This document shows, one piece after another, positions 8,048 through 63,200 of a stretch of 64,000 nucleotides of DNA. This stretch comes from Candidatus Poribacteria bacterium. Lineage in GTDB: Bacteria; Poribacteria; WGA-4E; WGA-3G. The position numbers were made by a program, and so were the translations under genes. Numbering within the stretch: the first letter of the stretch is position 1; every line of letters starts with the position of its first letter. Where the stretch lies: contig CAXXUA010000005.1 of assembly GCA_963663765.2 (NCBI GenBank), forward strand, positions 896,001 to 960,000. The letters run 5' to 3'. The notes beneath the pieces were generated by a model. That model was not told where the DNA came from and searched no databases. It worked only from the letters and a program-made list of their open reading frames with translations.

Positions 8048-9997
8048 CTATTCTGATGCTTGTGTGACCTTCTGTTTTTCTATCGTCAACATGCCTTTTG
8101 TGGTCCCGATCCAAGCCCGATTCTTGTCAACGACAATACATTGAATTGCCAAGCCTTCTAATGCTATTTTCGGGTATCCGATAGTTCCCTGATATTCACC
8201 GGTGTGCGGATAAAAGATAGCGACATAGTCGTTCACAGCAACCCATAAAATCTGCGGTGTTTGCGCTGGTTCTCCATTTTCCTTATCATCAGGGGGTTGT
8301 GGATTCACCTTACCAACGATGCCAGTCACGTATATATCATCTGCTTCATCCTGTTCCTCAAAACCCTCTACCACAGAGTAAGACATAACACCTGATCCAT
8401 CGGAGTTAGCTCGGAAAAACCCGTTTGTCATGATTTCAGGATTGTACCAAGAAAAAAGCACTTTCTCACCAACGACATCAAATTTGACAATCTGGCTTTC
8501 TTGAGCGATACGTGTAAAGTGTTGAGACTCCCAGAGTCCTATTTTCCGATTAAAAACAGCGATATTGTCACCAGATGTACCAACCCATACGACATCGGGT
8601 GTTAGTGCAATTGTGTGAACATCATTGGGAACCGGGTCGTTTCCATGATAGTGGAACAGTTCACCGTTCTCACGCACCTGCCGAACAACACCAGCATCTG
8701 TGGCGAACCAAATTTCCTCTTTATCTATTTTTATGTCCCGAATCCACATACTGGGTAAACCGTTGTTTAGTGTGTAATTTCGCGTTTGATGCGAATTTTT
8801 ATTAAAATAGATGACCCCTTGATTTCGCGTGCCAACCCATACGCCAGAGTTATCTACTGCAATTGATTGGACATCTGGAACTTTTGGCACACTGTCGTTA
8901 ATCATCCAGGCAGCAGGTTCATTCACTTTCCATGCACCAGTACCTTCAGTTTCGATTTGTGCTATCCCTTTCGGAGTGCCTATCCAGAGAGATGTACCAT
9001 CAACTGCTATGGTTTGAATACTGGGATCGGGTAAATCTTGTATGAAGATGTTCCAAGCACTCGCTTGACGTATTTCATTTGCTTTTTCGGCTATCAAAGG
9101 ATCATCGGTATTTTGCAGGACAACGTTAGCAATGTTAACCGCAAGTCCTCTTTCACCAGCCTGTAAATAGATGATTGCCCGTTTCAGGTGAGCTTCATCA
9201 ACCCACTTGCTTTTAGGATAAATCCTGATGAACTGATGCAAGGTGTTTAGTGCCTTTTCCGTTTCGCCAGTTTCTGCTTGTAATCCCCCAATTAAGTAGA
9301 CAGCTTTCTCATGTTCAGCAACATTAGGAAATTGCGATATTGATTTTTGCAACAACTCAAGTCCCGCAGCTGTATCGTTCAAATTTTCTACCAGCATGAA
9401 TCCTGTCTGGTAGCTAAGACCTCCAGCAGATTGATGTTCAGGATAGTGTTTTAGTATCAATTGGTAGGCGTTAACGGCTTGGATAATATTCTCTGCAGCG
9501 ATCGCAGTTTCTCCAATTTCTCGTAATTTCGGCACAAGGTCATAGTTCTTTGCATCTAACAGAGCAACAGATTTAAAACGTTGCACTGCTTTCTCAATAT
9601 CTCCATCTTTCTTATATAGTAAACCGAGTTGATAATGTGCATCTACAAATTTCGGAGATTCCTCCAACGCCTTCTCGAATTGCCGTTTTGCTAATTCTGG
9701 TGCTTCTAAGTCTAACAGGTCGCGCCCATTCCGATAATTCTTCGTAGCCGCTTGGTCTGGCACATTTTCAAGATCCGAGATAAAACGGAGCGTATGCCCT
9801 TCTAATGGAAACCTTAACACCTGCTCGTTATATTCAATTTCAAAGTGTGTATCTGTAGAGTTACGCCAAAGTCCCGTGAGTCGGTCACCGTTTGGCATCT
9901 CTACGATGACGTATTGCTCACAGTTCGCCGTGCTTGTGAACAGCACAAAAAGCATAATAAGGCATATATAATAAAATCGAAGGTAAGTGTTCTGCAT
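8048..9997 (-). CDS. Exported TPR-repeat protein with C-terminal beta-propeller (two-component regulator propeller-like)
   Basis: Signal peptide; TPR motifs (AHYQLG, YPEH, YPKSKW); repeated WIGT/WVGT/WFAT blades. Confidence 0.75.
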   Translation of the reverse strand: MQNTYLRFYYICLIMLFVLFTSTANCEQYVIVEMPNGDRLTGLWRNSTDTHFEIEYNEQVLRFPLEGHTLRFISDLENVPDQAATKNYRNGRDLLDLEAPELAKRQFEKALEESPKFVDAHYQLGLLYKKDGDIEKAVQRFKSVALLDAKNYDLVPKLREIGETAIAAENIIQAVNAYQLILKHYPEHQSAGGLSYQTGFMLVENLNDTAAGLELLQKSISQFPNVAEHEKAVYLIGGLQAETGETEKALNTLHQFIRIYPKSKWVDEAHLKRAIIYLQAGERGLAVNIANVVLQNTDDPLIAEKANEIRQASAWNIFIQDLPDPSIQTIAVDGTSLWIGTPKGIAQIETEGTGAWKVNEPAAWMINDSVPKVPDVQSIAVDNSGVWVGTRNQGVIYFNKNSHQTRNYTLNNGLPSMWIRDIKIDKEEIWFATDAGVVRQVRENGELFHYHGNDPVPNDVHTIALTPDVVWVGTSGDNIAVFNRKIGLWESQHFTRIAQESQIVKFDVVGEKVLFSWYNPEIMTNGFFRANSDGSGVMSYSVVEGFEEQDEADDIYVTGIVGKVNPQPPDDKENGEPAQTPQILWVAVNDYVAIFYPHTGEYQGTIGYPKIALEGLAIQCIVVDKNRAWIGTTKGMLTIEKQKVTQASE

Positions 9998-10113
9998 AAA
10001 TTTCTCACTAATATCATATTGATAAGTTCAAGGATATATTATCAGAAACAACGAGAAATGTCAAGAACGTTTGGTGTGTTGAGTGTGTAAAGTTTTTGTA
10101 GAAACCCTGATAT

Positions 10114-10283
10114 TATAGTAGATTTTAGAATTATTTTTACACATTCAGGTGTAGGAGGGAACTCCGATTCCCGACTATCAAGGCGTTCAGTCGCGATTCG
10201 GAGATCGAAATCAACGGTATGAATGCCTATTGGCATTCCCCGCCTACAGAACAAGTGTAAACTTAATTGTATATTTCACTATA
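10114..10283. mobile_element. MITE family C inserted at a TA inside element A; contains mini-element D (10208-10242)
   Basis: Imperfect TIR tatagtagattttagaatta / taattgtatatttcactata; unoccupied site reads gatatTAaaagaag in the copy at 51520, so TA is duplicated. Confidence 0.75.
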
Positions 10284-10381
10284 AAAGAAGTATCTAAAGT
10301 TTCTATCAAAGCTTGCTTGACGTAAGGATTCTGTGGACATCGTAGGGGCGAGGTTTCCTCGCATGCGTAAAACCTCTGTTC

Positions 10382-11044
10382 GGGCGGGGAGACCCCGCAC
10401 CATAAGCGTCAATTTAAGGATTTTGACGTATTGTGGGAGGGGTTTTCAACCCCGAATTTATGCGCTTTTCCTCTCAAATCGGGGTTGAAAACCCCTCCAA
10501 CAAGAGAAATGACAACAATATTTTCTTAAATTGACGCCTATGGGGCGGGGAAACCCCGCACCATAAGCGTCAATTTAAGGATTTTGACGTATTGTGGGAG
10601 GGGTTTTCAACCCCGAATTTATGCGCTTTTCCTCTCAAATCGGGGTTGAAAACCCCTCCAACAAGAGAAATGACAACAATATTTTCTTAAATTGACACCT
10701 ATGGGGCGGGGAAACCCCGCACCATAAGCGTCAATTTAAGGATTTTGACGTATTGTGGGAGGGGTTTTCAACCCCGAATTTATGCGCTTTTCCTCTCAAA
10801 TCGGGGTTGAAAACCCCTCCAACAAGAGAAATGACAACAATATTTTCTTAAATTGACACTTATGGGGCGGGGAAACCCCGCACCATAAGCGTCAATTTAA
10901 GGATTTTGACGTATTGTGGGAAGGGTTTTCAACCCCGAATTTATGCGCTTTTCCTCTCAAATCGGGGTTGAAAACCCCTCCAACAAGAGAAATGACAACA
11001 ATATTTTCTTAAATTGACGCCTATGGGGCGGGGAGACCCCGCCC
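10382..11044. repeat. Tandem array: four 142-bp element B units separated and flanked by five 19-bp hairpins (period 161 bp)
   Basis: B at 10401-10542, 10562-10703, 10723-10864, 10884-11025; hairpin gggcgggg-a(g/a)a-ccccgc(a/c)c. Confidence 0.95.
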
Positions 11045-11155
11045 CTACGCACAGTAACCAAAACTTTACACACCCCTATACATCTGTTTGTCTTGACTCA
11101 TCCAACTTGACAGTATATAATATCTCTATATACGACTTATCTGACTGGCACGTAA

Positions 11156-11881
11156 ATGAAAATATTAGGCATTGACACCTCAACCCCTATCGGTAGCGTT
11201 GCACTCATAGATGCGGAGAACATAGTCGCAGAGCATACACTCAATATTGTCCAAGCACATTCTTCCAGACTGATGCCAGCGATTGACAGTGTGTTAAAAT
11301 GGGGAGAAGTTACACCGAAAGACTTAGACGGTTGTGCGGTTGGCATCGGTCCTGGGTCGTTCACAGGTGTGCGTATCGGCGTGGCAACAGCAAAATCTCT
11401 CTGCTACGCAGCTGATATACCCATCGTCGGCGTTTCCACTTTAGAAGCAATTGCTTATAACCTTCGGTGGACAGATGGACACGTCTGTCCAATTCTTGAT
11501 GCACGCAGGAGTGAAATATATGGTAACATCTTCCACGGTGGCGCAGAATGGAAACGGCTCACTGACGATCTCTGTTTGCCGATTGATTCATTCCTTGATG
11601 AACTCAAGGCACATCTATCCCATGATAACGATGTCACCTTCGTTGGAGATGGACTTTCAAGTTATGGAGATGCGATCCATGAAAAATTTGGTAGTAAAGA
11701 GATAGTCTCGGGGTTGAAAACCCCTCCGACAAGAGAAAACGCAGTGCATTTCGCGGACAATATCTTTAATGTACCGCGCGGATCAACAATCGCAAAACTC
11801 GGTGCAAAACGCTTGAAGCAAGGTGATAGTGACAGTTATTGGACTTTGGTGCCGAACTATGTTAGAATTGGATTGTATTAA
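11156..11881 (+). CDS. tsaB: tRNA threonylcarbamoyladenosine biosynthesis protein TsaB
   Basis: MKILGIDTST, AHSSRLMPAI, GPGSFTGVRIG, DARRSEIY, PNYVR; in-frame REP-derived segment at 11708-11738. Confidence 0.95.
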   Translation: MKILGIDTSTPIGSVALIDAENIVAEHTLNIVQAHSSRLMPAIDSVLKWGEVTPKDLDGCAVGIGPGSFTGVRIGVATAKSLCYAADIPIVGVSTLEAIAYNLRWTDGHVCPILDARRSEIYGNIFHGGAEWKRLTDDLCLPIDSFLDELKAHLSHDNDVTFVGDGLSSYGDAIHEKFGSKEIVSGLKTPPTRENAVHFADNIFNVPRGSTIAKLGAKRLKQGDSDSYWTLVPNYVRIGLY

Positions 11882-13393: not shown

Positions 13394-13603
13394 GCGGGGA
13401 ATGCCATAGGCGAATTCATAGGCGTCAATTTAAGAAAAAAGTGTTGGTGTTTCTCTTGTGGGAGGGGTTTTCAACCCCGATTTGAGAGGAAAATCGCGTA
13501 AAATCGGGGTTGAAAACCCCTCCCACAAGAGGTCAAAATCCTTAAATTGACGTCTATGGCGAAAGCTATAGGCGCATTCATACCGTTGGATGCGTAAGTC
13601 CTG
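13371..13603. mobile_element. MITE family F containing mini-element D, itself interrupted by element B (13417-13558)
   Basis: TIR cagaacttacgca / tgcgtaagtcctg; B TIR cataggcgtcaatttaag; overlaps the flippase stop codon. Confidence 0.8.
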
Positions 13604-14743: not shown

Positions 14744-15209
14744 CAGGGTTATTTAGTTTTAAGAGTTTTCTGTTATTGAGATTTACTGAAAGTTAATACC
14801 CAGGTTTGGTTTCCTAACCGAACTTTCTGCATCAGTTTTAGATTATTGAAAAATGAATATCGCTCTTTAGTCCCGTAGGGACGATATGTTTATAGAAAAC
14901 GAATACCCTCCCCAGTTCTTTAGTCCCGTAGGGACGATATGTTTATAGAAAACGAATACCCTCCCCAGTTCTTTAGTCCCGTAGGGACGATATGTTTATA
15001 GAAAACGAATACCCTCCCCAGTTCTTTAGTCCCGTAGGGACGATATGTTTATTTTTCTATGTCGTTCCTACGGAACTCAAGAGGGATAGATAACATGTTT
15101 CTATAAACATATCGTCCCTACGGGACTAAAGACATGGACAAGATGGCAACACATAAAATTAACGACATAGCAAAATATTATCAATAATATTGAAAACTGA
15201 ATAACCCTG
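14744..15209. mobile_element. MITE family E (CAGGG ends, ISAs1-like) with expanded internal repeat
   Basis: 17-bp TIR cagggttatttagtttt / aaaactgaataaccctg; degenerate 9-bp TSD ttatcatag/ttatcacat; homologous to 60511-60940. Confidence 0.85.
14865..15052. repeat. 53-bp tandem repeat, three full copies plus a partial copy
   Basis: ctttagtcccgtagggacgatatgtttatagaaaacgaataccctccccagtt at 14865, 14918, 14971; partial at 15024. Confidence 0.95.
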
Positions 15210-15701
15210 TTATCACATCCTCTAATTTGACAATAGAAATGACTATATCAGCAATCTGACAGAATAATTTATAGGCACAATCTGGCAGAATGTGCTACAA
15301 CTGCCCGCACAATCTGGAAGAATGTCTATTATTGGCGAAGGTATTGCACAATGCACTATAGTTAAAAGACAATAAAACAAAAAACTTTACATTTTACCCA
15401 AAATAACTTGACAAACACTATTATTTGTGTTACAATATATATTACATATCAGATATATAACATAATATATAAAATGACTTACATAAATGATAAATTTAGA
15501 AATGTTACACTTCTCCGAAAATATTATTTTTAAAATCCCGAAATTCACAATAAAAACACCTATATACCCTTACTACTACTGAATTTACAGCAAAACATAA
15601 AAAGTTACAAAAAACGAAGAAAGTGTCCATTTAGTAACTTTTGAAGGACGAATCACCCAAACAAAAACGCAAAATAAACAACATCATCTCGGACCAAACC
15701 C

Positions 15702-15730
15702 TTGCATTTAATGTCCAAACCCTATACAAT
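15702..15730 (+). promoter_or_regulatory. Sigma70-like promoter of the R-M gene, probably leaderless
   Basis: TTGCAT-17 bp-TACAAT; ATG 15737 follows 6 nt after the -10 box; no SD. Confidence 0.55.
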
Positions 15731-15736
15731 AAAAAT

Positions 15737-18700
15737 ATGAATTTTCAAAAACACTATAACCAATATATACAAGAAATAAACCAAACACGATCCGACCCGA
15801 ATGCAACCCCCGAACTCTCTTTGCATCCACATCTCAAAACGTTCATGGAAGATGTTACTGCGGACCCAGACTGTTTTGACATTCCCAACATAATATTCAC
15901 ACTGGAACCGAGAAACATCAACCAAATCGGACGACCCGACTTCATCGCTACAAATGGATTGCTACCTATCGGTTATATTGAAGCAGAAACTTATGGGGCA
16001 GACCTAACCAACCTATCAGGACACGCCAAACAACAAAACAAACGGTTCAAGGAAAACCTTGATAACTTCGTACTCACCAATTTCATAGATTTTGAGTTGT
16101 GGATAGATGGACAATGCAACACAACAGCACGCATTACAGACAACATAGACGATTTAGCGATATTATTAGAGCGATTCCTGAAGACATCTGTCCAAATCGG
16201 CACACCGGAAGCACTCGCAAAATACCTTGCAAGACGGACACGCGAACTCCAAACACAGATCGCAACGACACTCACCGATGAGGAAAGTGAAACCTTCCGC
16301 ATGTTTACCGCGTTCAAGGAAACGTTGCTCGCGACACTAACCCCAGACGAATTTGCGGATATGTACGCGCAAACTCTTACGTATGGATTGTTCGCCGCAC
16401 GCTGCACACAGCCGAATGCAACTAATTTTTCACGGTACACCGCTGTCGGTACACTGCCGAAATCAAACCCATTCCTCATAAAACTCTTTTATCATGTCGT
16501 ATCACCACAACTTGAGACAAATGTTACCTACATTCTGGATGATATTGCAACGCTGCTCCAAAACGTTCCGACAGACATGCTCCGCACAGCGTTTACTGCC
16601 AGAAATCCTCTTGAAGACCCGGTTATACATTTTTACGAGACATTCCTAAAAGAATATAATCCGAAACTCCGCTTTGATCGCGGGGTATTTTACACACCGC
16701 CACAGGTTATCTCCTACATTGTTCGCTCAGTAGATGTCCTGCTCAAAACAGAACTCAATAAACCCGATGGACTTGCCGATGACGACACAATTATCCTCGA
16801 TCCTGCCACAGGCACAGGTGGATTTCTGCTGTCCGTGCTTAACCACATCCGCGAACATGTTACAACCTATTATGGCACCGGTGATTGGAATCAGTATGTC
16901 AACGCACAACTCGTCAAACGGATTTTCGGGTTTGAACTGCTGGTCGCGCCATATACGATTGCACATCTGAAGTTGAGTCTGTTTCTGCAAACACAAGGAT
17001 GGCGCGCTGATGAACGACTCGGTATCTATCTTACCAATGCTTTGGAACAACCGGATGAGATGCAGCCTCCGTTGCCTTTTGCTGCGTTCATATCTGACGA
17101 AGCGAACGCGGCACTCTCTGTGAAACGGGACGAACCGTTACTTGTCATTCTCGGTAATCCACCTTATAAGCGTCATTCTGTTAACCCAAGTCGTGTGGGC
17201 AGAAACTTAACCTTTATTGGTGAACTCATTGAGGATTATAAACAGGTAGATGGAAAACCACTTGATGAAGCAACCTCAAAAGCACTCCAAGATGACTATG
17301 TGAAGTTTATTCGGTGGGCACAGTGGCGAATTGATAAAAACGGTGAGGGAGTTATTGGTTATATTGTTAATAATAATTTCCTTGATGCACCTACTACTCG
17401 CGGCATGCGGCAAAATTTGTTAGACAGTTTCAATGCTATCTATGTGCTCAATTTGCACGGTAGTAACAGGAAAACAGAAGCGGTGCCAACAAGTCAGGGA
17501 GATGAAAACGTCTTTGATATCTCACAAGGAGTCTCCATTCTTTTATGTATAAAACAACGCGATAATCTTGATGCTACAAAGGTCTATCACGCTGATATGT
17601 GGGGATCCCGAGAAGAGAGATATAGGACACTTTCAGAAACCGATGTCCAATCTACGACGTGGTGTGAACTACAACCGAAATCACCTTATTACCTTTTTGT
17701 ACCGCAAGAAATGGACTACAGTGCTGAATATGAAAGCGGATGGAAAATTACAGACATCTTCCAAACGAGTTCTATTGGAATTGTCACCGCGCGAGATAAT
17801 TTGACAATTCATCGGACTCCTGAAGCGATTCGTGAAACGGTGACGGGTTTTGTTTCACTCTCTGTAGACGAGGCGCGAGAGCAGTACAGGTTGCCAAGGG
17901 ACACTCGAGATTGGAAAGTGCCTCTTGCCCAAGCGGATCTCCGTAACCATCCTGATGCAGAACAACACATCCAACCTATTTACTATCGTCCATGTGATAC
18001 ACGTTGGACGTACTACACAGGAAGATCGCGTGGATTTCACTGTATGCCTCGTCCTAAAAATATGCCTCATCTCCTCAAGGAAAATCTTGCCCTATGTGTT
18101 TGTCGTGTTGTTGCAAACATCAAGTGGCAACACGCCTTGGCAACTGACAAAATAACAGAAAATCGTTATGTCTCAAACAAAGGAAGTGAATCCGGACATG
18201 TGTTTCCGCTCTACTTGTATCCAGATTCAGAAGGACTATTAGGCTCAACAGAACCTGAACTCAATTTCAAACCCGAATTTCTCACTGCTCTCTCGGAGAC
18301 GTTGCAACTTCCACAAACCCCACCGTTTCAACTCCCCGAAGGCATTGCACCAGAGCAGATCCTCGCCTATATCTACGCCGTGCTTTATAGTCCAACCTAT
18401 CGAAAACGTTATTATGAGTTTCTAAAATACGACTTCCCGCGTATCCCTTTACAACAAGATATTGACGAATTCTGCTTACTTGCAGAGTATGGACAAGAAT
18501 TAATTGATCTGCATCTCTTAAAGGATAAGAATATACCCCATCGCCATTTATTTGAGGGAGAAGGAGATGGCGTAGTCTCAAAACTTCGTTATGAAGATGG
18601 CAATGTCTGGATCAACAACGCACAGTATTTCACGAATGTCCCTCCAGAAGTATGGGAATATGAGGTCGGAGCGTATCAGGTGTGTGAAAAATGGCTAAAA

Positions 18701-18817
18701 GATCGGAAAGGAGAAACGTTAAGTCATGAGGAGATCCGTCTATATCCTATGATTGTGGTTTCCATCACAGAAACACTACGGATGATGGAGGCAATAGAAT
18801 GGGTGCTTGAGTTTTAA
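15737..18817 (+). CDS. Single-chain restriction-modification enzyme: nuclease-like N-terminus, N6-adenine methyltransferase, type ISP-like specificity domain (type IIG/IIL-like)
   Basis: GRPDF...GYIEAE, GVFYTP, LDPATGTGGF, GNPPY, DDYVKFIRWA, DFPRIP, YQVCEKWLKDRKG; ORF track starts at TTG 15641, ATG 15737 preferred. Confidence 0.9.
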   Translation: MNFQKHYNQYIQEINQTRSDPNATPELSLHPHLKTFMEDVTADPDCFDIPNIIFTLEPRNINQIGRPDFIATNGLLPIGYIEAETYGADLTNLSGHAKQQNKRFKENLDNFVLTNFIDFELWIDGQCNTTARITDNIDDLAILLERFLKTSVQIGTPEALAKYLARRTRELQTQIATTLTDEESETFRMFTAFKETLLATLTPDEFADMYAQTLTYGLFAARCTQPNATNFSRYTAVGTLPKSNPFLIKLFYHVVSPQLETNVTYILDDIATLLQNVPTDMLRTAFTARNPLEDPVIHFYETFLKEYNPKLRFDRGVFYTPPQVISYIVRSVDVLLKTELNKPDGLADDDTIILDPATGTGGFLLSVLNHIREHVTTYYGTGDWNQYVNAQLVKRIFGFELLVAPYTIAHLKLSLFLQTQGWRADERLGIYLTNALEQPDEMQPPLPFAAFISDEANAALSVKRDEPLLVILGNPPYKRHSVNPSRVGRNLTFIGELIEDYKQVDGKPLDEATSKALQDDYVKFIRWAQWRIDKNGEGVIGYIVNNNFLDAPTTRGMRQNLLDSFNAIYVLNLHGSNRKTEAVPTSQGDENVFDISQGVSILLCIKQRDNLDATKVYHADMWGSREERYRTLSETDVQSTTWCELQPKSPYYLFVPQEMDYSAEYESGWKITDIFQTSSIGIVTARDNLTIHRTPEAIRETVTGFVSLSVDEAREQYRLPRDTRDWKVPLAQADLRNHPDAEQHIQPIYYRPCDTRWTYYTGRSRGFHCMPRPKNMPHLLKENLALCVCRVVANIKWQHALATDKITENRYVSNKGSESGHVFPLYLYPDSEGLLGSTEPELNFKPEFLTALSETLQLPQTPPFQLPEGIAPEQILAYIYAVLYSPTYRKRYYEFLKYDFPRIPLQQDIDEFCLLAEYGQELIDLHLLKDKNIPHRHLFEGEGDGVVSKLRYEDGNVWINNAQYFTNVPPEVWEYEVGAYQVCEKWLKDRKGETLSHEEIRLYPMIVVSITETLRMMEAIEWVLEF

Positions 18818-20570: not shown

Positions 20571-20753
20571 GGGTGTGTAAAGTTTTGGTTACTGTGCGTA
20601 GGGGCGGGGTCTCCCCGCCCGAACAGAAGTTTTACGCGGGCGAGGAGACCTCGCCCCTACGATGTCCACAGTTCCCTAACGTCAAGTAAGCTTTAATAGA
20701 AACTGGACGGACTTCTTTTAAAATCTGGGTTTCTACAAAAACTTTACACACCC
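20571..20753. mobile_element. MITE family A, empty 183-bp allele with GTAG REP doublet
   Basis: TIR gggtgtgtaaagtttt / aaaactttacacaccc; perfect 8-bp TSD gaaaaccc (20563-20570 and 20754-20761). Confidence 0.9.
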
Positions 20754-32991: not shown

Positions 32992-34004
32992 ACGTGAGTT
33001 TGATAATTAAAAACTGGTAAATAGAGAACCCCTTTGTTATTATGAAGTATACCAAATACTTACATAAGGAGTTCTCTGATGGATATCATAACACTTTTCT
33101 GTATAATTGACGATTTTTTTCTTGCGTATCTACAATATAAAGCAAAACACCAGTTGCCAGAAATACCCGGGACAAGCAATACCCGTGGCAGACCCAGGCG
33201 TCTTCATCCTAGCGAAGTTATGACGATACTTATTTATTTTCATCAACATAAGTGTAAAAACTTCAAAACCTATTATCAAGAGCATGTCTGTAGCAACCTC
33301 CGTTGGGCGTTTCCAAACCTTGTCAGCTATAGTCGGTTTGTGCAGCTTGCACAAGAGGTTTTGATGCCGTTGTCTATTCTTCTAAACACCCGTTTCGGTG
33401 AATGTAATGGGACTTCCTTCATTGACTCAACGCCACTTCCAGTTTGCCATAATCGTCGGATTTCAGCGAATCGTGTCTTCGCTGATGGGGCAGAACGATC
33501 CAAAACCTCTATGGGATGGTTCTACGGGTTCAAACTGCATCTCGTCATCAATGATCAAGGTGAACTGCTGTCTGCTATGGTGACACCCGGAACACGGATG
33601 ACCGGAAACCTGTGCCACAGTTGACCAAAGGACTATTTGGCAAACTTTATGCCGATAAAGGGTATATCAACAAAAAGCTGCGGGATAAACTGCGGGATGG
33701 AGGTGTGTCACTCGTTTACAAAGTGCGTAAGAACATGAAACCCGAACCCTTGTCTGATGCTGACGCAGAACTCCTGAAAAAACGGATGCTCATTGAGTCG
33801 GTGAATAAAGAACTCAAAACTCAGACAGAGATCCAACATACACGGCATAGAAGTTATGCTAACTTCCAAGTCAATACAGTTGCTGCCTTGATCGCTTATA
33901 CCTATTTGAAGAAAAAACCCTCACTCAAACGCAAAGAACTCAAGGATATTAATTATCCATTTCCAATGATATGTAACAACTAAAACTATTTATCAAACTC
34001 ACGT
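32992..34004 (+). mobile_element. IS982-family insertion sequence (1013 bp)
   Basis: 15-bp TIRs, about 1 kb length, IS982-type transposase inside. Confidence 0.92.
33079..33983 (+). pseudogene. IS982-family transposase with frameshift near 33590
   Basis: LFCIIDDF, SEVMTI, SYSRF, IDSTPL, GWFYGFKLHL, ADKGY, RMLIESV; expected TPGNTDDRKP is broken by a 1-nt loss. Confidence 0.9.
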
Positions 34005-51278: not shown

Positions 51279-51486
51279 ATCCAAATCACGGATGACACAG
51301 ATGACACGGATAATACCACTACCAACGATTATCTTGCTTAGAAAACGCCTATCCTACGGAAGACAATCAAATGCAGAACTCTTATCCGCGCACTCCACGT
51401 AATCCGTGTAATCCGCGATTCCGAACACCCTCCGCACACTCCGCGTAATCCGCATAATCCGCATAATCCGCATAATCCGCGATTCT
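51279..51486. repeat. Inverted-arm element built from 9-bp units (acacggatg-type and aatccgcat-type)
   Basis: cacggatgacacagatgacacggat ... aatccgtgtaatccgcgattc ... (aatccgcat)x3 aatccgcgattc. Confidence 0.7.
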
Positions 51487-51519: not shown

Positions 51520-51863
51520 GGGTGTGTAAAGTTTTTGTAAAAAGCTTGATATTAAAAGAAGTCCGTCCAGTTTCTATCAAATATTGCTTGACGTTAGGGA
51601 ACTGTGGACATCGTAGGGGCGAGGTTTCCTCGCCCGCATTAGCCTCTATTCGGGTGGGGAGACCCCGCCCCATAGGCGTCAATTTAAGAAAATATTGTTG
51701 TCATTTTTCTTGTGGGAGGGTTTTTCAACCTTGATTTGAGAGGAAAAGCGCATAAATTCGGGGTTGAAAACCCCTCCCACAAGAGGTCAAAATCCTTAAA
51801 TTGACGCTTATGGGGCGGGGAGACCCCGCCCCTACGGTACAGCAACCAAAACTTTACACACCC
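51520..51863. mobile_element. MITE family A with one element B (51671-51812) in its hairpin
   Basis: 9-bp TSD aaacatcaa; hairpin duplicated at 51652-51670 and 51813-51831; B inverted relative to the 10.4-kb array. Confidence 0.9.
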
Positions 51864-52054
51864 AAACATCAATCTTCGGTTGACCCAATGATAGAGTTTC
51901 GGTTATTATAATATATGTGTCAAATTTGGGATAGGCAGCAGCGTGAAAATGAATTACGGATTATCACAGTTTCGTAAAGTCAACACAGGTTAGTCATTTT
52001 GCGTTGAACCGTTCAGTCAAAATATATTTACGCAACTTACTTTATGAGGCAAAT

Positions 52055-53950
52055 ATGAAAAAACTAAACCTATATGTAATACTGATTTTTATCTGTTTTC
52101 ACCTTTTGTTAGCATATAGTTTTGCACAGGATTATACCCGTTTGCAACTACCAGAAGGAGCCATCGCACGTTTGGGAAAAGGAAAATTATTTGAGATAAA
52201 ATATTCACCCGATGGCAACCAAATTGCAGTTGCAACTGCAATCGGAATCTGGTTTTATGATACTGCTACCGGTGCCGAATTAGCACTCCTCACCGGACAC
52301 ACAGAGAGTATTGAATGCATTGCCATTAGTCCAGATGGAAAGACTTTGGCGTCAGGCAGCAACGACAACACCATCATGCTATGGGACATAGAGACACGCA
52401 CACGAAAAGCAACCCTTGTTAGACATTTAGATGATGTTCGGTCCCTTGCTTTCAGTCCAGATGGAAATACCCTCGCAAGTACCAGTGAAGATGCAACAAT
52501 TAATCTGTGGGACGTTCAGACTGCAAAACATAAAAGAACAATAACCGGACATGCCAATTGGGGTAGGGCAGTTGCTTTCAGTCCCGATGGAAGTATCCTC
52601 GCAAGTGCAAATCATGATGCTACCATCCGACTTTGGGACGCAAACACAGGAACACATCTAAGAACGTTCTCAGGACATGAACGAGCTGTAACCTCTATCG
52701 CCTTTAGTCCGGATGGAAAAACGATCTGCAGTGGGTGCGACGACGGCTCTGTCGGCTTGTGGGAAACAAGTACTGGCAAGAATATACAAATCATGATGAA
52801 GCATACATGGTACGTCGTTTCGGTCTCGTGTTCACCGGATGGAAAGACATTCGCAAGTGGTAGTTGGGACAATGAGATTTATATGTGGAACACCGAAACA
52901 GGTGAACATGTGAAGACACTATCTGGACATACAAATCATGTCGTATCGGTCGCATATTCACCGAAAGGTGACACGCTCGCAAGTGCAAGTTACGACGGTA
53001 CAGTTCGCTTGTGGCATCCTCGCACCGGCAATGAAAAAAATATATTTGTTGGACATACTCGTGATGTGAAAACTGTCGCATTTTCTCCTGATGGAAACAC
53101 ATTGGCAAGTGGAAATTCTGCAACCACCATACATCTATGGGACTCAACCACAGGTGCATATAAAAACACGCTTATCGGACACTCACAGACAGTTGGTGCA
53201 ATCGCATTTTCTCCCGATGGATCAACACTCGCAAGCGGTAGTTGGGATAATACGATTCGTCTATGGGATCCTCAAACCGGACGAGAAAAACAGGTAATCG
53301 CTGAACATTGGAATAATGTCGCATCAGTAGCTTTTTCCCCTGATGGCACCATGCTCGCGAGTGGAAGTTATGACCAGACAGTCCGTTTATGGAACGCACA
53401 CACAGGTGAACCCTTGCAGACACTCAATGGACATATTGCTAATGTTAGGGCTGTCGCATTTTCACCTGATGGCAAGACACTCGCAAGTGGCGATGGAGCT
53501 AACAAAATCCTCTTTTGGGATCCAAAAACAGGACAAACGCAGTTGATGTCGTCTGTTCAACGCATACTCAATAGACCTGTGATGCATTCTGGGGATATTA
53601 CGGGACTCGCCTACAGTCCTGATGGATCAACACTTGCAAGTGCAAGCGATGACCAAACAATCGGTTTATGGAACGCACAAACAATGAAAAATAAACAGAT
53701 GTTACGTGGACACACAAGGTATGTCTTATCTGTGGCTTATGCGCCGCAAGGAGATATGATCGCAAGCTGCAGTTGGGACAAGATTATACGTTGTTGGGAC
53801 CCAAAAACTGGAAAGCACAAAACCGGGTTCATTGGACACACTGGCTATGTCTTGTCGGTTGCGTTCTCACCTGATGGAAAACTCCTCGCAAGTGGAAGTT
53901 CTGATGGAACGGTGCTATTATGGGATATGTCAAAATTAAAAACCAAATAG
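52055..53950 (+). CDS. Secreted WD40-repeat protein
   Basis: Signal peptide, LPEGAIARLGKG cap, about 13-14 GH...FSPDG..LASGS.D..I.LWD repeats; ATG 52055 with GAGG RBS. Confidence 0.93.
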   Translation: MKKLNLYVILIFICFHLLLAYSFAQDYTRLQLPEGAIARLGKGKLFEIKYSPDGNQIAVATAIGIWFYDTATGAELALLTGHTESIECIAISPDGKTLASGSNDNTIMLWDIETRTRKATLVRHLDDVRSLAFSPDGNTLASTSEDATINLWDVQTAKHKRTITGHANWGRAVAFSPDGSILASANHDATIRLWDANTGTHLRTFSGHERAVTSIAFSPDGKTICSGCDDGSVGLWETSTGKNIQIMMKHTWYVVSVSCSPDGKTFASGSWDNEIYMWNTETGEHVKTLSGHTNHVVSVAYSPKGDTLASASYDGTVRLWHPRTGNEKNIFVGHTRDVKTVAFSPDGNTLASGNSATTIHLWDSTTGAYKNTLIGHSQTVGAIAFSPDGSTLASGSWDNTIRLWDPQTGREKQVIAEHWNNVASVAFSPDGTMLASGSYDQTVRLWNAHTGEPLQTLNGHIANVRAVAFSPDGKTLASGDGANKILFWDPKTGQTQLMSSVQRILNRPVMHSGDITGLAYSPDGSTLASASDDQTIGLWNAQTMKNKQMLRGHTRYVLSVAYAPQGDMIASCSWDKIIRCWDPKTGKHKTGFIGHTGYVLSVAFSPDGKLLASGSSDGTVLLWDMSKLKTK

Positions 53951-53966
53951 ACTAAAGAGTGTGATT

Positions 53967-55871
53967 ATGAAAAACCTAAAATGCATTACGCTGCTAATAA
54001 TCGTTGTTTGTCTAATATCGGGAACATTCTGTTATTCCCAAGAATATACAAAATGGCATTTACCTGAAGGGGCAAAACAACGTTTTGGAAAAGGAATTAT
54101 AAGAGAAGTCGCATTTTTCCCTGATGGGAAAAAACTTGCTATCAGTAGTTCAATCGGTATCTGGATTTATGATGTAAATACAGGTGAAGAACTTGATCTG
54201 CTTACAGATAGTTGGCACGATACCGATTCAATTGTGATTAGTCCGAAAGGTGATATACTCGCAACTGCAATTGGAAACAAAGTCCAACTGTGGAATACAA
54301 CCGAAAAGAACCTAATTGATACATTCATAGGACACAGATCTGATATTTATTCATTGGCAATGAGTTCAGATGGGAAAACACTCGTAAGTGGAAGTGCTGA
54401 TACGACTATTCGAATATGGGATACAACGACAGGAAAAGCAGGTTCCGCACCTATAGTAAACACCGAAGCCGTCCGTTCATTGGCATTTTCACCAGCAGGG
54501 AACACACTCGTAAGTATATCAGAAACGGATGAAAGCACAATACAATTATGGAACTTAGACAGCGGAGAGAATGTGTTAAATATCTTTCCAAGGATAGGCA
54601 GAATCTATTCAATTGCGTATTCTCCAGAGGGTTCCATAATAGCCACTGGAAGTTGGAACGGTAGAATCCATTTATGGAATCCGAGTACTGGCGAACTCCT
54701 AAACACCTTATCAGAACATGCAAGCCGTGCAACGACATTAGATTTCTCACAGGATGGCAAATACTTAGTCAGTAGCGGATTAGACTTTAGAATAAATGTG
54801 TGGAATTTAGAAACCAATATGTTGGTGAATACATTCAGAGACGTTTCAATTTTCTTCAATAATGTTGCCATTTCACCTGATGGCAAACTGATAGCCGGTA
54901 CAAGTAGTTTAAATGGGGTAATTCGCTTGTGGGACATGCAGACCGGGAACATCGTTAAAACCATCACTGGACATACAAAGTACATCAGATCCGTCGCGTT
55001 TTCACCAGATGGAGCATCTGTCGCTTATCCCAATAGAGTTGATAACGTCATCATTCTCCGGGATGTCCAAACTGGAGAAATACAAAAAACACTAACGGAA
55101 GGGACAGGTACACCCTATTCGGTTATGTTTGCACCTAATGGTGAAATACTTGCATCGGGTAATTGGTATGGACAAATCGTTTTATGGAATGTGCAAACAG
55201 GAGAACCAATAAAGAGACTCATTGGACATACAAGGAATGTACCTACCCTTGCATTTACGCCTGATGGATCAACACTGATAAGTGGCAGTTGGGACTATAC
55301 AATCCGATCTTGGGATGTTCAAACCGGTGTTGTCAAAAAAGCAATCCCTGTATATCAGTCAAATATTGATACGGCCAACTACAAGGTACAATCCATAGCC
55401 ATCAGCCCAGATGGTAATACATTCGCCTACGCCTCTGAGGCACAAAATATACGGTTATGGGATATACTCATGAAAGAACCAAAAGAAGAGCTAATAGGAC
55501 ATAACGGAGCTGGCGCAAGCGTTGCGTTTTCTCCAAATGGAACTATCCTTGCAAGTGGTAGTTTTGACGATACTGTAATAATTTGGGAAGCAGAAACTGC
55601 GAATCTGTTAAATACCTATAGAGAACCAACTTCATATAACGTTTATAGTGTTGCGTTTAGTCCAGACGGCGACACAGTTGCAGGTGGTAGTAATAAGGTT
55701 ATACGAATGTGGGATACCATGACAGGAAAAAACATGCTATCACTAACAGGACACACAGATTGGGTGCGTTCTGTTACATTCAGTCCTGATGGTCGTACCC
55801 TTGCCAGTGCATCTTCAGACGGCACAGTGATTCTTTGGGATGTGTCTAATAACCTACACACAAAAAACTGA
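53967..55871 (+). CDS. Secreted WD40-repeat protein
   Basis: Signal peptide, LPEGAKQRFGKG cap, multiple WD40 repeats. Confidence 0.93.
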   Translation: MKNLKCITLLIIVVCLISGTFCYSQEYTKWHLPEGAKQRFGKGIIREVAFFPDGKKLAISSSIGIWIYDVNTGEELDLLTDSWHDTDSIVISPKGDILATAIGNKVQLWNTTEKNLIDTFIGHRSDIYSLAMSSDGKTLVSGSADTTIRIWDTTTGKAGSAPIVNTEAVRSLAFSPAGNTLVSISETDESTIQLWNLDSGENVLNIFPRIGRIYSIAYSPEGSIIATGSWNGRIHLWNPSTGELLNTLSEHASRATTLDFSQDGKYLVSSGLDFRINVWNLETNMLVNTFRDVSIFFNNVAISPDGKLIAGTSSLNGVIRLWDMQTGNIVKTITGHTKYIRSVAFSPDGASVAYPNRVDNVIILRDVQTGEIQKTLTEGTGTPYSVMFAPNGEILASGNWYGQIVLWNVQTGEPIKRLIGHTRNVPTLAFTPDGSTLISGSWDYTIRSWDVQTGVVKKAIPVYQSNIDTANYKVQSIAISPDGNTFAYASEAQNIRLWDILMKEPKEELIGHNGAGASVAFSPNGTILASGSFDDTVIIWEAETANLLNTYREPTSYNVYSVAFSPDGDTVAGGSNKVIRMWDTMTGKNMLSLTGHTDWVRSVTFSPDGRTLASASSDGTVILWDVSNNLHTKN

Positions 55872-60510: not shown

Positions 60511-60940
60511 CAAGGTTATTCAGTTTTAAGAGTTTTCTGTTCTTGAGATTTACTGAAAGTTAATACCCAGGTTCGGTTTTCTAACCGAATTTTACGCATC
60601 AATTTTAATTTATTGAAAACTGAATATCGCTCTTTAGTCCCGACAAATGCCATACGGGGAATGCCTTAATGGCATTCATACCGTTGATTTGGCGCATTTG
60701 GCGTTGATTTGGTAGGGACGATATGTTTATAGATAACGAATACCCTCCCCATGTCTTTAGTCCCGTAGGGACGATATGTGTATTCTTCTATGTCGTTCCT
60801 ACGGAACTCTATTGGGGTTGAAAACATTTTCTATAAACATATCGTTCCTACGGAACTAAAGACATGGACAAGAGGGGTATTACAACATATTAACGGTATA
60901 ACAAAATACTATCAAAAATATTGAAAACTGAATAACCCTG
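60511..60940. mobile_element. MITE family E with a D-containing insertion (about 60643-60711)
   Basis: TIR caaggttattcagtttt / aaaactgaataaccctg; perfect 9-bp TSD aatccaaat. Confidence 0.9.
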
Positions 60941-62823: not shown

Positions 62824-63200
62824 ATAACTTAAGTTGCCACCTACTTTCAGAATACTCTTGTGGGAGGGGTTTCTAACCCCGATTTATGAAAACTTGCATC
62901 AGAATTCGTTGTTTTTATGTTTTCTGTTATCAATCGGGGTTAGAAACCCTCCTACAAAAAATAGGTTGCAACTCCGGTTATTATAGTAAAGTATAGAATT
63001 AAAAAGACATTCAATGAACTTTAAACTCCCACAAGACCTGTAGGGGCAGGGTTTTCCCGCCCGTTGTAATATGTCCCATTAATTGTAAATTCCACTATAT
63101 AATGATTTTATCAATCTTGTAGGTCGGATTTCGTTCCTCTACCCGACTTTGCTGTGGAAATTTGGTTTCTTGTCGCGTATCGGTCCTCTACCCGACCTAC
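62824..63200. mobile_element. Abutting mini-elements: shell with B-type REP doublet (62824-62981), family C (62982-63099) and a REP doublet (about 63119-63200)
   Basis: TIR ataacttaagttgccaccta / taggttgcaactccggttat; tatagtaaag...ccactata; gtaggtcgg...ccgacctac. Confidence 0.7.

Follow-up and report, generated by a model that had tools for sequence, protein, structure and literature searches.

In a 64,000-nucleotide stretch of a Candidatus Poribacteria genome (the window), positions 10382 to 11044 hold four copies of a 142-bp element, B, which alternate regularly with five copies of a 19-bp hairpin. An initial annotation described this locus as resembling a CRISPR (clustered regularly interspaced short palindromic repeats) array and as built by an element that duplicates its own hairpin target. 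What, then, is B, and by which steps did its array arise? We compared the window with loci from a genome scan (L numbers; coordinates without a locus prefix are window positions). The results make it likely that B is an IS4-type MITE (a miniature transposable element with inverted repeats) that copies a whole 19- to 20-bp hairpin at each insertion and that the four-unit array is a local tandem amplification, not a CRISPR-like locus.

Three states of one insertion site

Tandem Repeats Finder reports 10382 to 11042 as one tandem array (period, 161; 4.1 copies; 98% matches; score, 1280), and direct reading resolves 10382 to 11044 into four 142-bp B units interleaved with five 19-bp hairpins (Table 1), each array unit being exactly B plus one duplication, with zero extra DNA. 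The terminal repeat of B, CATARGCGTCAATTTAAG, has 12 matches in the window at up to 3 mismatches, against a chance expectation of 0.19, and 0 of 100 shuffles reach this number. These matches correspond to six B copies, namely, the four array units and the copies at 13417 to 13558 and 51671 to 51812.

The array lies in a second, MITE-like repeat, element A, which is bounded by GGGTGTGTAAAGTTTT inverted repeats and is present in three copies in the window. Each A contains a pair of inverted hairpins whose outer ends bear GTAG tags, and the second hairpin is the B site in both occupied copies. As the initial annotation had recognized, this site is found in three states: empty in A copy 2, with a single hairpin GGGCGGGGTCTCCCCGCCC at 20602 to 20620; with a single insertion at 51652 to 51831; and with the array at 10382 to 11044. 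The hairpins on either side of the single B match at 18 of 19 positions. The proposal that B is mobile and that the whole 19-bp hairpin is its target-site duplication is borne out, and an autonomous partner was found (see below). The orientations of B relative to A are opposite at the array and at 51671 to 51812; thus, two A copies were hit independently at the same target, as had also been suggested. At the third locus named in that annotation, B (13417 to 13558) does sit in the hairpin of another element, D, with a flanking duplication of 16/20 positions; this copy is only 89.4 to 90.8% identical to the array units, pointing to an older insertion.

The target hairpin has the features of a GTAG-tagged repetitive extragenic palindrome (REP) or of a REP doublet forming hairpins (REPIN), as defined in Di Nocera et al. 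2013 (PMC3733652): it is a short palindrome with an unpaired tag, it is repeated and extragenic, and it forms an inverted pair in A. CGTAG stands 5' of the palindrome at 20597 to 20620, and CTACG stands 3' of it at 20638 to 20661, 11026 to 11049, and 51813 to 51836. Twelve matches to the target hairpin occur in the window, with 0 expected. No Y1 transposase of the type associated with REPs (REP-associated tyrosine transposase [RAYT]) was found among the 46 window open reading frames (ORFs) scanned.

Table 1. Copies of elements A and B, their hairpins, and target duplications in the window (IRL and IRR, left and right inverted repeats)
Feature	Position	Strand	Sequence or size	Remarks
Element A copy 1	10081-11075		terminal repeats 10081-10100 (+), 11056-11075 (-)	B array in second hairpin; another nested insertion in left arm
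Unoccupied element D hairpin	~10218-10250	(-)	GAATGCC-AATA-GGCATTC on minus strand	
Hairpin h1	10382-10400		GGGCGGGGAGACCCCGCAC	left copy of duplicated REP-like target; from sequence reading, duplication scoring, and hairpin search
B unit 1	10401-10542	(-)	142-bp MITE	IRR-like end AAGGATTTT left, IRL-like end AAGAAAATATT right
Hairpin h2	10543-10561		GGGCGGGGAAACCCCGCAC	from sequence reading, duplication scoring, and hairpin search
B unit 2	10562-10703	(-)		99.3% identity to unit 1
Hairpin h3	10704-10722		same sequence as h2	
B unit 3	10723-10864	(-)		from unit comparison
Hairpin h4	10865-10883		same sequence as h2	
B unit 4	10884-11025	(-)		from unit comparison
Hairpin h5	11026-11044		canonical GGGCGGGGAGACCCCGCCC	followed by CTAC, the other-strand reading of the GTAG tag
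Element D hairpin duplication, left copy	13397-13416		20 bp, GGGAATGCCATAGGCGAATT	16/20 identical to right copy
B copy in element D hairpin	13417-13558	(+)		89.4-90.8% identical to array units
Element D hairpin duplication, right copy	13559-13578		20 bp, GCGAAAGCTATAGGCGCATT	
Element A copy 2	20571-20753		183 bp	unoccupied reference; two inverted GTAG-tagged hairpins (20602-20620 + 20638-20656), REPIN-like doublet
Element A copy 3	51520-51863		344 bp = 183 + 161	one B
Target duplication, left copy	51652-51670		GGGTGGGGAGACCCCGCCC	18/19 identical to right copy
Single B copy	51671-51812	(+)		orientation relative to A opposite to array units; 93.7-95.1% identical to them
Target duplication, right copy	51813-51831		GGGCGGGGAGACCCCGCCC	

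The array is neighbored by a divergent gene for a tetratricopeptide repeat (TPR) protein (8048 to 9997, minus strand) and a tsaB-like gene (11156 to 11881, plus strand). The nested insertion in the left arm of the array-bearing A (about 170 bp, 10108 to 10270) carries the element D hairpin, and part of it is 82% identical to L023. The core of B is a 73-bp palindrome (10431 to 10503) with arms TTGTGGGAGGGGTTTTCAACCCCGA; a separate element at 62855 to 62960 has the same arms as this core and a different middle, and one arm of the core palindrome recurs over 31 nucleotides at 97% identity (11708 to 11738) inside the tsaB-like ORF. B may have been put together from two elements.

Autonomous partner and length of the target duplication

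A search for an autonomous transposase and a tabulation of flanking duplications had been proposed in the initial annotation. Scanning one genome per species for the terminal repeat yielded at least 104 stretches, 24 of them with flanks of only about 300 bp; among the matches listed, 74 of the 80 loci with listed titles are from Candidatus Poribacteria. Autonomous elements with the same 18-nucleotide terminal repeat are 1451 bp (L034:2501-3951 and L043:2778-4228, on one chromosome with different flanks) or 1470 bp (L020:2501-3970) in length, and each carries a single ORF of 438 to 442 amino acids. The ORF encodes a DDE transposase (Pfam DDE_Tnp_1 at 1.1e-21 and 6.3e-24) that reaches 210.1 and 201 bits with the NCBIfam IS4 family model NF033592 (transpos_IS4_1; cut-off, 115), while the IS1634, IS701, and IS982 models all stay under their own cut-offs (IS1634, 44 bits versus 100). 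The IS1182 family, which had been invoked at first, is not supported: the top NCBIfam match of the transposase is IS4, no IS1182 model appears among its matches at E <= 0.01, and the ends are of the IS231 type.

When the transposase is aligned with Chloroflexota relatives and with IS231D, residues D119, D191, E324, R320, and K331 do not vary. The spacers of the DDE triad (D-D, 71 residues; D-E, 132 residues) fall within the ranges D(60-110)D(100-150)E that, together with a Y(2)R(3)E(6)K motif, define the IS4 family in PMC2266710. R320, E324, and K331 of this motif are invariant, and its tyrosine position is V in L034, I in L020, L in Herpetosiphon, and Y in Chlorohelix and IS231D. The element end, CATAGGCGTCAATTTAAG, has CAT at positions 1 to 3, AA at 11 to 12, and TAA at 15 to 17, in agreement with the signature CAT-------AA--TAA of the IS231 subgroup (De Palmenaer et al. 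2008, PMC2266710, Table 1). According to tblastn against plasmids, the nearest annotated relatives belong to the IS4 family and come from Ca. Chlorohelix (34% identity) and from Herpetosiphon (35%), followed by Clostridium and Bacillus IS231-type genes at about 24 to 26%; the Bacillus IS231D copy (L107) is surrounded by other insertion sequence (IS) elements. A sequence search of solved structures with the transposase returned one row only, an unrelated ribosomal protein at E = 0.81.

The two ends of B are not equivalent. One of them, which reads on as AAGAAAATATT, resembles the left end of the IS, with 23 invariant positions in the first 24, and the other, which reads on as AAGGATTTT, resembles the right end, with 22 in the first 24. 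Because the B ends match the left and right IS ends, respectively, B is identified as a MITE of this IS type; in addition, it is a noncoding element of 142 bp with six window copies, and both B and the IS make 19- to 20-bp duplications. Relatives of B are present in L067, L079, and L097. With high confidence, therefore, B is a MITE that has an IS4-type autonomous partner and an 18- to 20-bp duplication.

For the duplication itself, we paired adjacent inverted ends 60 to 2000 bp apart in the scan loci and the window, after dropping the overlapping loci L021, L044, and L075; this gave 70 end pairs among the matches listed, 4 of which have too-short flanks, leaving 66 to evaluate. A clear direct duplication stands immediately outside the ends in 41/66 pairs, and its length is 20 bp in 21, 19 bp in 16, and 18 bp in 4, whereas duplications of 7 to 13 bp, the length of about one helical turn that is given by subgroup as a hallmark of the IS4 family in PMC2266710, were found in 0 of the 66 pairs. 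The three autonomous copies have duplications of 19, 19, and 20 bp, and two Chloroflexota plasmid relatives with related ends have duplications of 20 and 20 bp. A duplication of about two turns (18 to 20 bp) is thus a trait of this clade, as opposed to about one turn in the IS4 family. Many duplications are unique, nonrepeated sequences, such as GTATGCATTAGAAACTTATT in L027 and GCGTAGTCTTGTTGGAGCAT in L024 (both 20/20) and GTGCTTACTCACACAGCACT in L041, which rules out the hairpin as a part of the mobile element. One further candidate, L025:2501-3947, was considered as a mobile insertion cassette-like passenger cassette with a short-chain dehydrogenase ORF and was rejected; its left end at 2501 pairs with 2786, so that 2501 to 2786 is a 286-bp MITE with a 20/20 duplication and the 1.4-kb span is ordinary DNA between separate elements.

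IS231 and MIC231 of the Bacillus cereus group (IS4 family) share with this clade a single-ORF DDE transposase, the conserved R-E-K residues, the end signature, a length of about 1450 bp, and the existence of transposase-less derivatives with the same ends. The target of IS231A is reportedly symmetric, GGG(N)5CCC. Transposase-less IS231 derivatives moved in trans (MIC231) and a marked target specificity of IS231, a further likeness to this clade, are described in PMC6199540 and PMC2266710, respectively. The latter paper also characterizes the IS231 subgroup by direct repeats of 10 to 12 bp, by many transposase pairs with more than 50% similarity, and by hosts of the B. cereus group. The clade described here departs from it on all three counts, with duplications of 18 to 20 bp, 24% protein identity to the Bacillus IS231-type transposase, and hosts in Poribacteria and Chloroflexota; moreover, poribacterial copies have Val or Ile in place of the YREK tyrosine. 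IS1634 and IS1549, which are IS4 relatives, have direct repeats longer than one helical turn as well, but these vary from 8 to 514 bp (PMC2266710), whereas duplication length is tight here. Our literature searches, which left aside ISfinder and the PMC2266710 supplements, found no member of the IS4 family whose target duplication measures about 20 bp or two helical turns. Three features appear to be new: the stagger of this IS4/IS231-like clade is a tight 18 to 20 bp, a whole REP is copied at each insertion, and arrays result from this. The components themselves are of familiar types, namely, a transposase of the IS4 type, a MITE, a REP as the target, and amplification in tandem. With a stagger of about one turn being the textbook case for IS4/Tn5-type transposases, this clade offers a natural variant for studying strand-transfer spacing in the transpososome.

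Two side observations concern these elements. The 18-nucleotide end is also seen outside Poribacteria, in L006 and L035 (Microcoleus), L003 (Binatia), and L040 and L050 (Proteobacteria and Deltaproteobacteria metagenome-assembled genomes). A fragment of another DDE transposase, unrelated to B, lies at 33079 to 33621 (DDE_Tnp_1_3 at 2e-28, profile positions 2 to 67 of 155) and is flanked by 95 to 98% identical direct repeats (31844-31973/33877-34006 and 31749-31850/33056-33157).

Target choice

The targets of this clade are usually GTAG-tagged REP-like palindromes. We rebuilt and folded 36 empty sites from other genomes, with 1000 random 39-mers from the same loci as controls. The median folding energy is -6.6 kcal/mol for the rebuilt sites and -1.9 kcal/mol for the controls (Mann-Whitney p = 3e-12); energies of -8 or lower are reached by 15/36 sites and 20/1000 controls, and 7/36 sites lie above -3, being almost unstructured. 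In 21 of 22 folded sites, the duplication center is within 1 nucleotide of the dyad. Hairpin duplications consist of exactly an 8-bp stem, the loop, and an 8-bp stem, a 3-nucleotide loop giving 19 bp (6/6) and a 4-nucleotide loop giving 20 bp (10/10); because duplication length tracks loop length, the cuts seem to follow the stem ends, not a rigid ruler.

Hairpins are only one part of the pattern. Duplications that do not fold alone number 20 of 36, and 14 of these 20 keep 5'-GK...MC-3' ends. Such ends, G(G/T)...(A/C)C, are present in 28/36 duplications, compared with about 1.6% expected by simple base odds. Since this signature persists without the hairpin, a minimal target would seem to need only a pair of symmetric half-sites separated by about two turns, for which GTAG-tagged REP-like palindromes are the best natural source. 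Integration directed by structure, as proposed in the initial annotation, is not borne out by the unfolded duplications, the 7/36 nearly unstructured rebuilt sites, and the symmetric ends that persist without a hairpin. It is doubtful, though somewhat short of implausible, that the clade is a structure-guided integrase that reads an extruded hairpin, a cruciform, or stem ends and cuts 8 bp on either side of the loop. If that were the case, two previously undescribed things would follow. REPs could increase in number in the absence of a RAYT, being carried along by target duplication, and a landing pad that renews itself would build repeat-insert-repeat arrays by the logic that also underlies CRISPR repeat duplication, which would illustrate in a living system how a transposase alone can give rise to such arrays.

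The same duplications bear on a different idea, in which the mobile unit would be the 161-bp B plus hairpin, moved by site-specific recombination at hairpins in the style of integron cassettes (attC), of IS110-type elements, or of REPs moved by RAYTs, with no target duplication. B between two hairpins is the formally expected product of such a process; a hairpin and the terminal repeats on its two sides make up a 55-nucleotide palindrome, and strong folding is predicted for the unit in single-stranded form (-61 kcal/mol, z = -12.7). However, the duplications are locus specific and often neither hairpin nor repeat, identical autonomous IS copies have different duplications (GGGTTAGGTTACCTAACCC in L034 and GGTAGAGCGAAGCGAAACC in L043), and the encoded enzyme belongs to the DDE transposases and not to the tyrosine or serine recombinases, the IS110 type, or the Y1 enzymes. 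This idea is already contradicted by the nonpalindromic, unique 18- to 20-bp duplications, and we regard it as scarcely credible.

Other IS elements that choose palindromes leave different products. In Tobes and Pareja 2006 (PMC1525189), the REP-targeting elements ISPsy8, ISPa11, ISPpu9/10, and ISRm22 produce direct repeats of 0 to 6 bp and split the REP in two. They share insertion into REPs with the present clade, at the symmetry axis in the case of ISPsy8 and ISRm22, the latter being assigned to the IS4 family; here, in contrast, the whole inner palindrome is duplicated and the REP is intact on both sides. IS1272 (IS1182 family), according to PMC5678879, targets inverted-repeat structures in an "IR-replacing" mode without target duplications; palindromic targets are common to both, but duplications and an IS4-scoring transposase are found here. 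In the present clade, insertion into a REP raises the REP number instead of destroying the REP, which links MITEs and REPs.

Origin of the array and other repeats of the window

We propose the following mechanism. B would be moved in trans by a DDE transposase of an IS4-family clade with IS231-type ends, a clade that, among the matches listed, is abundant in Candidatus Poribacteria and that is also present on Chloroflexota plasmids. The transposase would join the element ends to target phosphates staggered by 18 to 20 bp, about two helical turns, and gap repair would then duplicate the whole stretch between the cuts; the preferred target is a symmetric site with 5'-G(G/T)...(A/C)C-3' ends, of which GTAG-tagged REP-like palindromes are the ideal form, and the REP is copied intact rather than broken. 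As each insertion leaves two intact targets, the site stays a hot spot, which accounts for the mixed MITE arrays in other genomes. The two hairpin copies also constitute direct repeats 161 bp apart. In the window, one B would have entered the second hairpin of A, and the 161-bp unit would have been amplified to four by unequal recombination or replication slippage, first via the 19-bp hairpin copies and later via whole 161-bp units. Such a mechanism helps explain the nested and tandem intergenic repeat clusters in the genomes of sponge-symbiont Poribacteria.

Both kinds of array occur in other genomes. At L074, at least three different elements (323, 225, and 315 bp) were inserted successively in mixed orientations with GTACCCCGCAAAACCGCAC copies between them, and at L042 two different elements share GGTAAAAACAGGTAAAACC, with a third GGTAAAAACAGGTAAAACC copy beyond; these mixed arrays uphold the earlier proposal that whole-target duplication regenerates the target. 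Back-to-back junctions outside the window (n = 7) each join two different elements with a 19- to 21-bp shared target. Uniform arrays are found at L016 (periods, 236 and 169) and L101 (period, 169), where each unit joins a hairpin to only the leftmost 149 bp of a 204-bp element. These units lack the right end and thus were not made by two-ended transposition; they must have been amplified through exchange in which the flanking hairpin paired with one inside the element. As an additional observation, short tandem units of 56 to 57 bp, each composed of the right terminal repeat, about 19 nucleotides, and a GTAG hairpin, lie at L016:3220-3358, L025:2440-2843, and L043:2650-2760; these one-ended modules alternating with REPs could result from nested self-insertion or hairpin exchange.

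The window array belongs with the uniform kind in its appearance. Its units are 97.9 to 99.3% identical among themselves and 89.4 to 95.1% identical to the two other window B copies, all four have one orientation, and three private substitutions are common to all four and absent from the other two B copies. The internal hairpins h2 to h4 (GGGCGGGGAAACCCCGCAC) are mutually identical, carry the 3' variant of h1, and are two positions off the canonical hairpin, whereas h1 is one position off. This uniformity favors a single insertion followed by amplification; the array probably arose in this way, through recombination or slippage between duplicated hairpins, and a crossover between h5 and h1 predicts exactly that h2 to h4 are identical with the 3' variant of h1. 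Recombination between hairpins, which the initial annotation had offered as its alternative, hence explains the four units better than its main reading, given their orientation, identity, and private substitutions.

In that main reading, three further transpositions would have brought a neighboring B copy into the regenerated hairpins. Whole-target duplication does regenerate the target, mixed arrays were so made at L074 (with GTACCCCGCAAAACCGCAC copies), L042, and L043, the unit has the composition expected, exactly B plus one duplication, and the hairpin variants are compatible with it. On the other hand, the four units share one orientation where L074 has mixed ones, and their identity and private substitutions set them apart from the other two B copies. 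IS4-family elements move by cut-and-paste, as established for Tn5 and Tn10, and local copy gain would need replication-coupled events each time. The one-ended arrays at L016 and L101, moreover, show hairpin recombination operating in these genomes. Repeated transposition is therefore an unlikely origin, although a less remote one than those considered next.

An over-expanded single B or a mis-joined repeat in the assembly is very improbable. Tandem units of 161 bp at 98% identity are indeed hard to assemble from short reads, but each unit has its own substitutions (right-end variants GCC, ACC, ACT, and GCC; unit 4 with GGGAAGGG), the outer hairpins differ from the inner ones, and similar arrays are found in records whose titles give them as whole chromosomes, such as OZ244616.1 (L016).

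There remains the resemblance to CRISPR. In CRISPR adaptation by Cas1-Cas2 and in casposon integration, staggered integration at both ends of a short palindromic repeat and the ensuing gap repair duplicate this repeat and generate repeat-insert-repeat arrays. The formal logic of repeat duplication is shared, and to this extent the analogy drawn in the initial annotation, target duplication around a short palindrome, holds; the regular alternation of a short palindromic repeat with longer inserts, together with strong predicted folding of the unit, could also suggest a functional CRISPR-like or other RNA-producing locus. The likeness goes no further: no CRISPR-associated (Cas) domain was found in the 46 window ORFs scanned, no Rfam family reaches its gathering score anywhere in the window, and the array has neither leader polarity nor distinct spacers. 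Its inserts are near-identical copies of one transposon (97.9 to 99.3%), its 19-bp repeat is the REP-like hairpin ordinarily found in element A, and the enzyme in question is an IS4-type DDE transposase. A functional locus of this sort is already contradicted and has next to no probability, and arrays like the present one should not be annotated as CRISPRs.

Amplification after one long-duplication insertion thus remains the favored account, and several observations weigh against parts of it. No transposase of this IS4 type is present in the window, so that activity in this genome is putative. Scoring detects no duplication in 25/66 pairs, including the 16/20 pair of the window and palindromes with indels or inverted loops; L023, L030, and L033, with diverged or inverted loops, fit recombination between copies, and others may be mis-paired ends. 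In array contexts, the flanks include neighboring terminal repeats, which inflates the folding energy of some rebuilt sites. The enzyme may read duplex symmetry or an extruded hairpin; most sites are hairpins whose duplication tracks stem length instead of a fixed distance. Finally, four units in the same orientation have a chance of 1 in 8 if orientation is random and are weak evidence, and the hairpin variant pattern is nondiscriminating, as successive insertion into h1-type hairpins also needs two mutations; with two mutations required by both array models, the variants were rejected as a discriminator.

The window has other repeat families in common with the scan loci. A second tandem array at 14864 to 15052 (53 bp x 3.6, 100% identity) has a partner arm at 15098 to 15137 and a second copy at 60699 to 60867; its 53-bp unit corresponds to a terminal arm of a further MITE-like palindrome (TCTTTAGTCCCGTAGGGACGATATGTTTATAGAAA), which is nested in many IS4-type MITEs of poribacterial loci. 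Arrays of the 12-bp repeat TGAACAAGGCAT at 2094 to 2198 (8.8 copies) and 2582 to 2662 (6.8 copies) lie in and just after an ORF without a Pfam match (1423 to 2382), and 278 bp around them are duplicated at 90% identity (family D6). A 9-bp repeat, TCCGCATAA x 5.6, is located at 51431 to 51480, directly upstream of the third A copy. Positions 15641 to 18817 encode a restriction-modification enzyme of the Type ISP class, large in size (Type_ISP_C, 3e-85; N6_Mtase), and 52004 to 55871 holds two adjacent WD40-repeat genes (648 and 636 amino acids) with many 126-bp periodic repeats; one of the two genes has a counterpart in the poribacterial locus L030, with 75.7% identity over 1891 bp.

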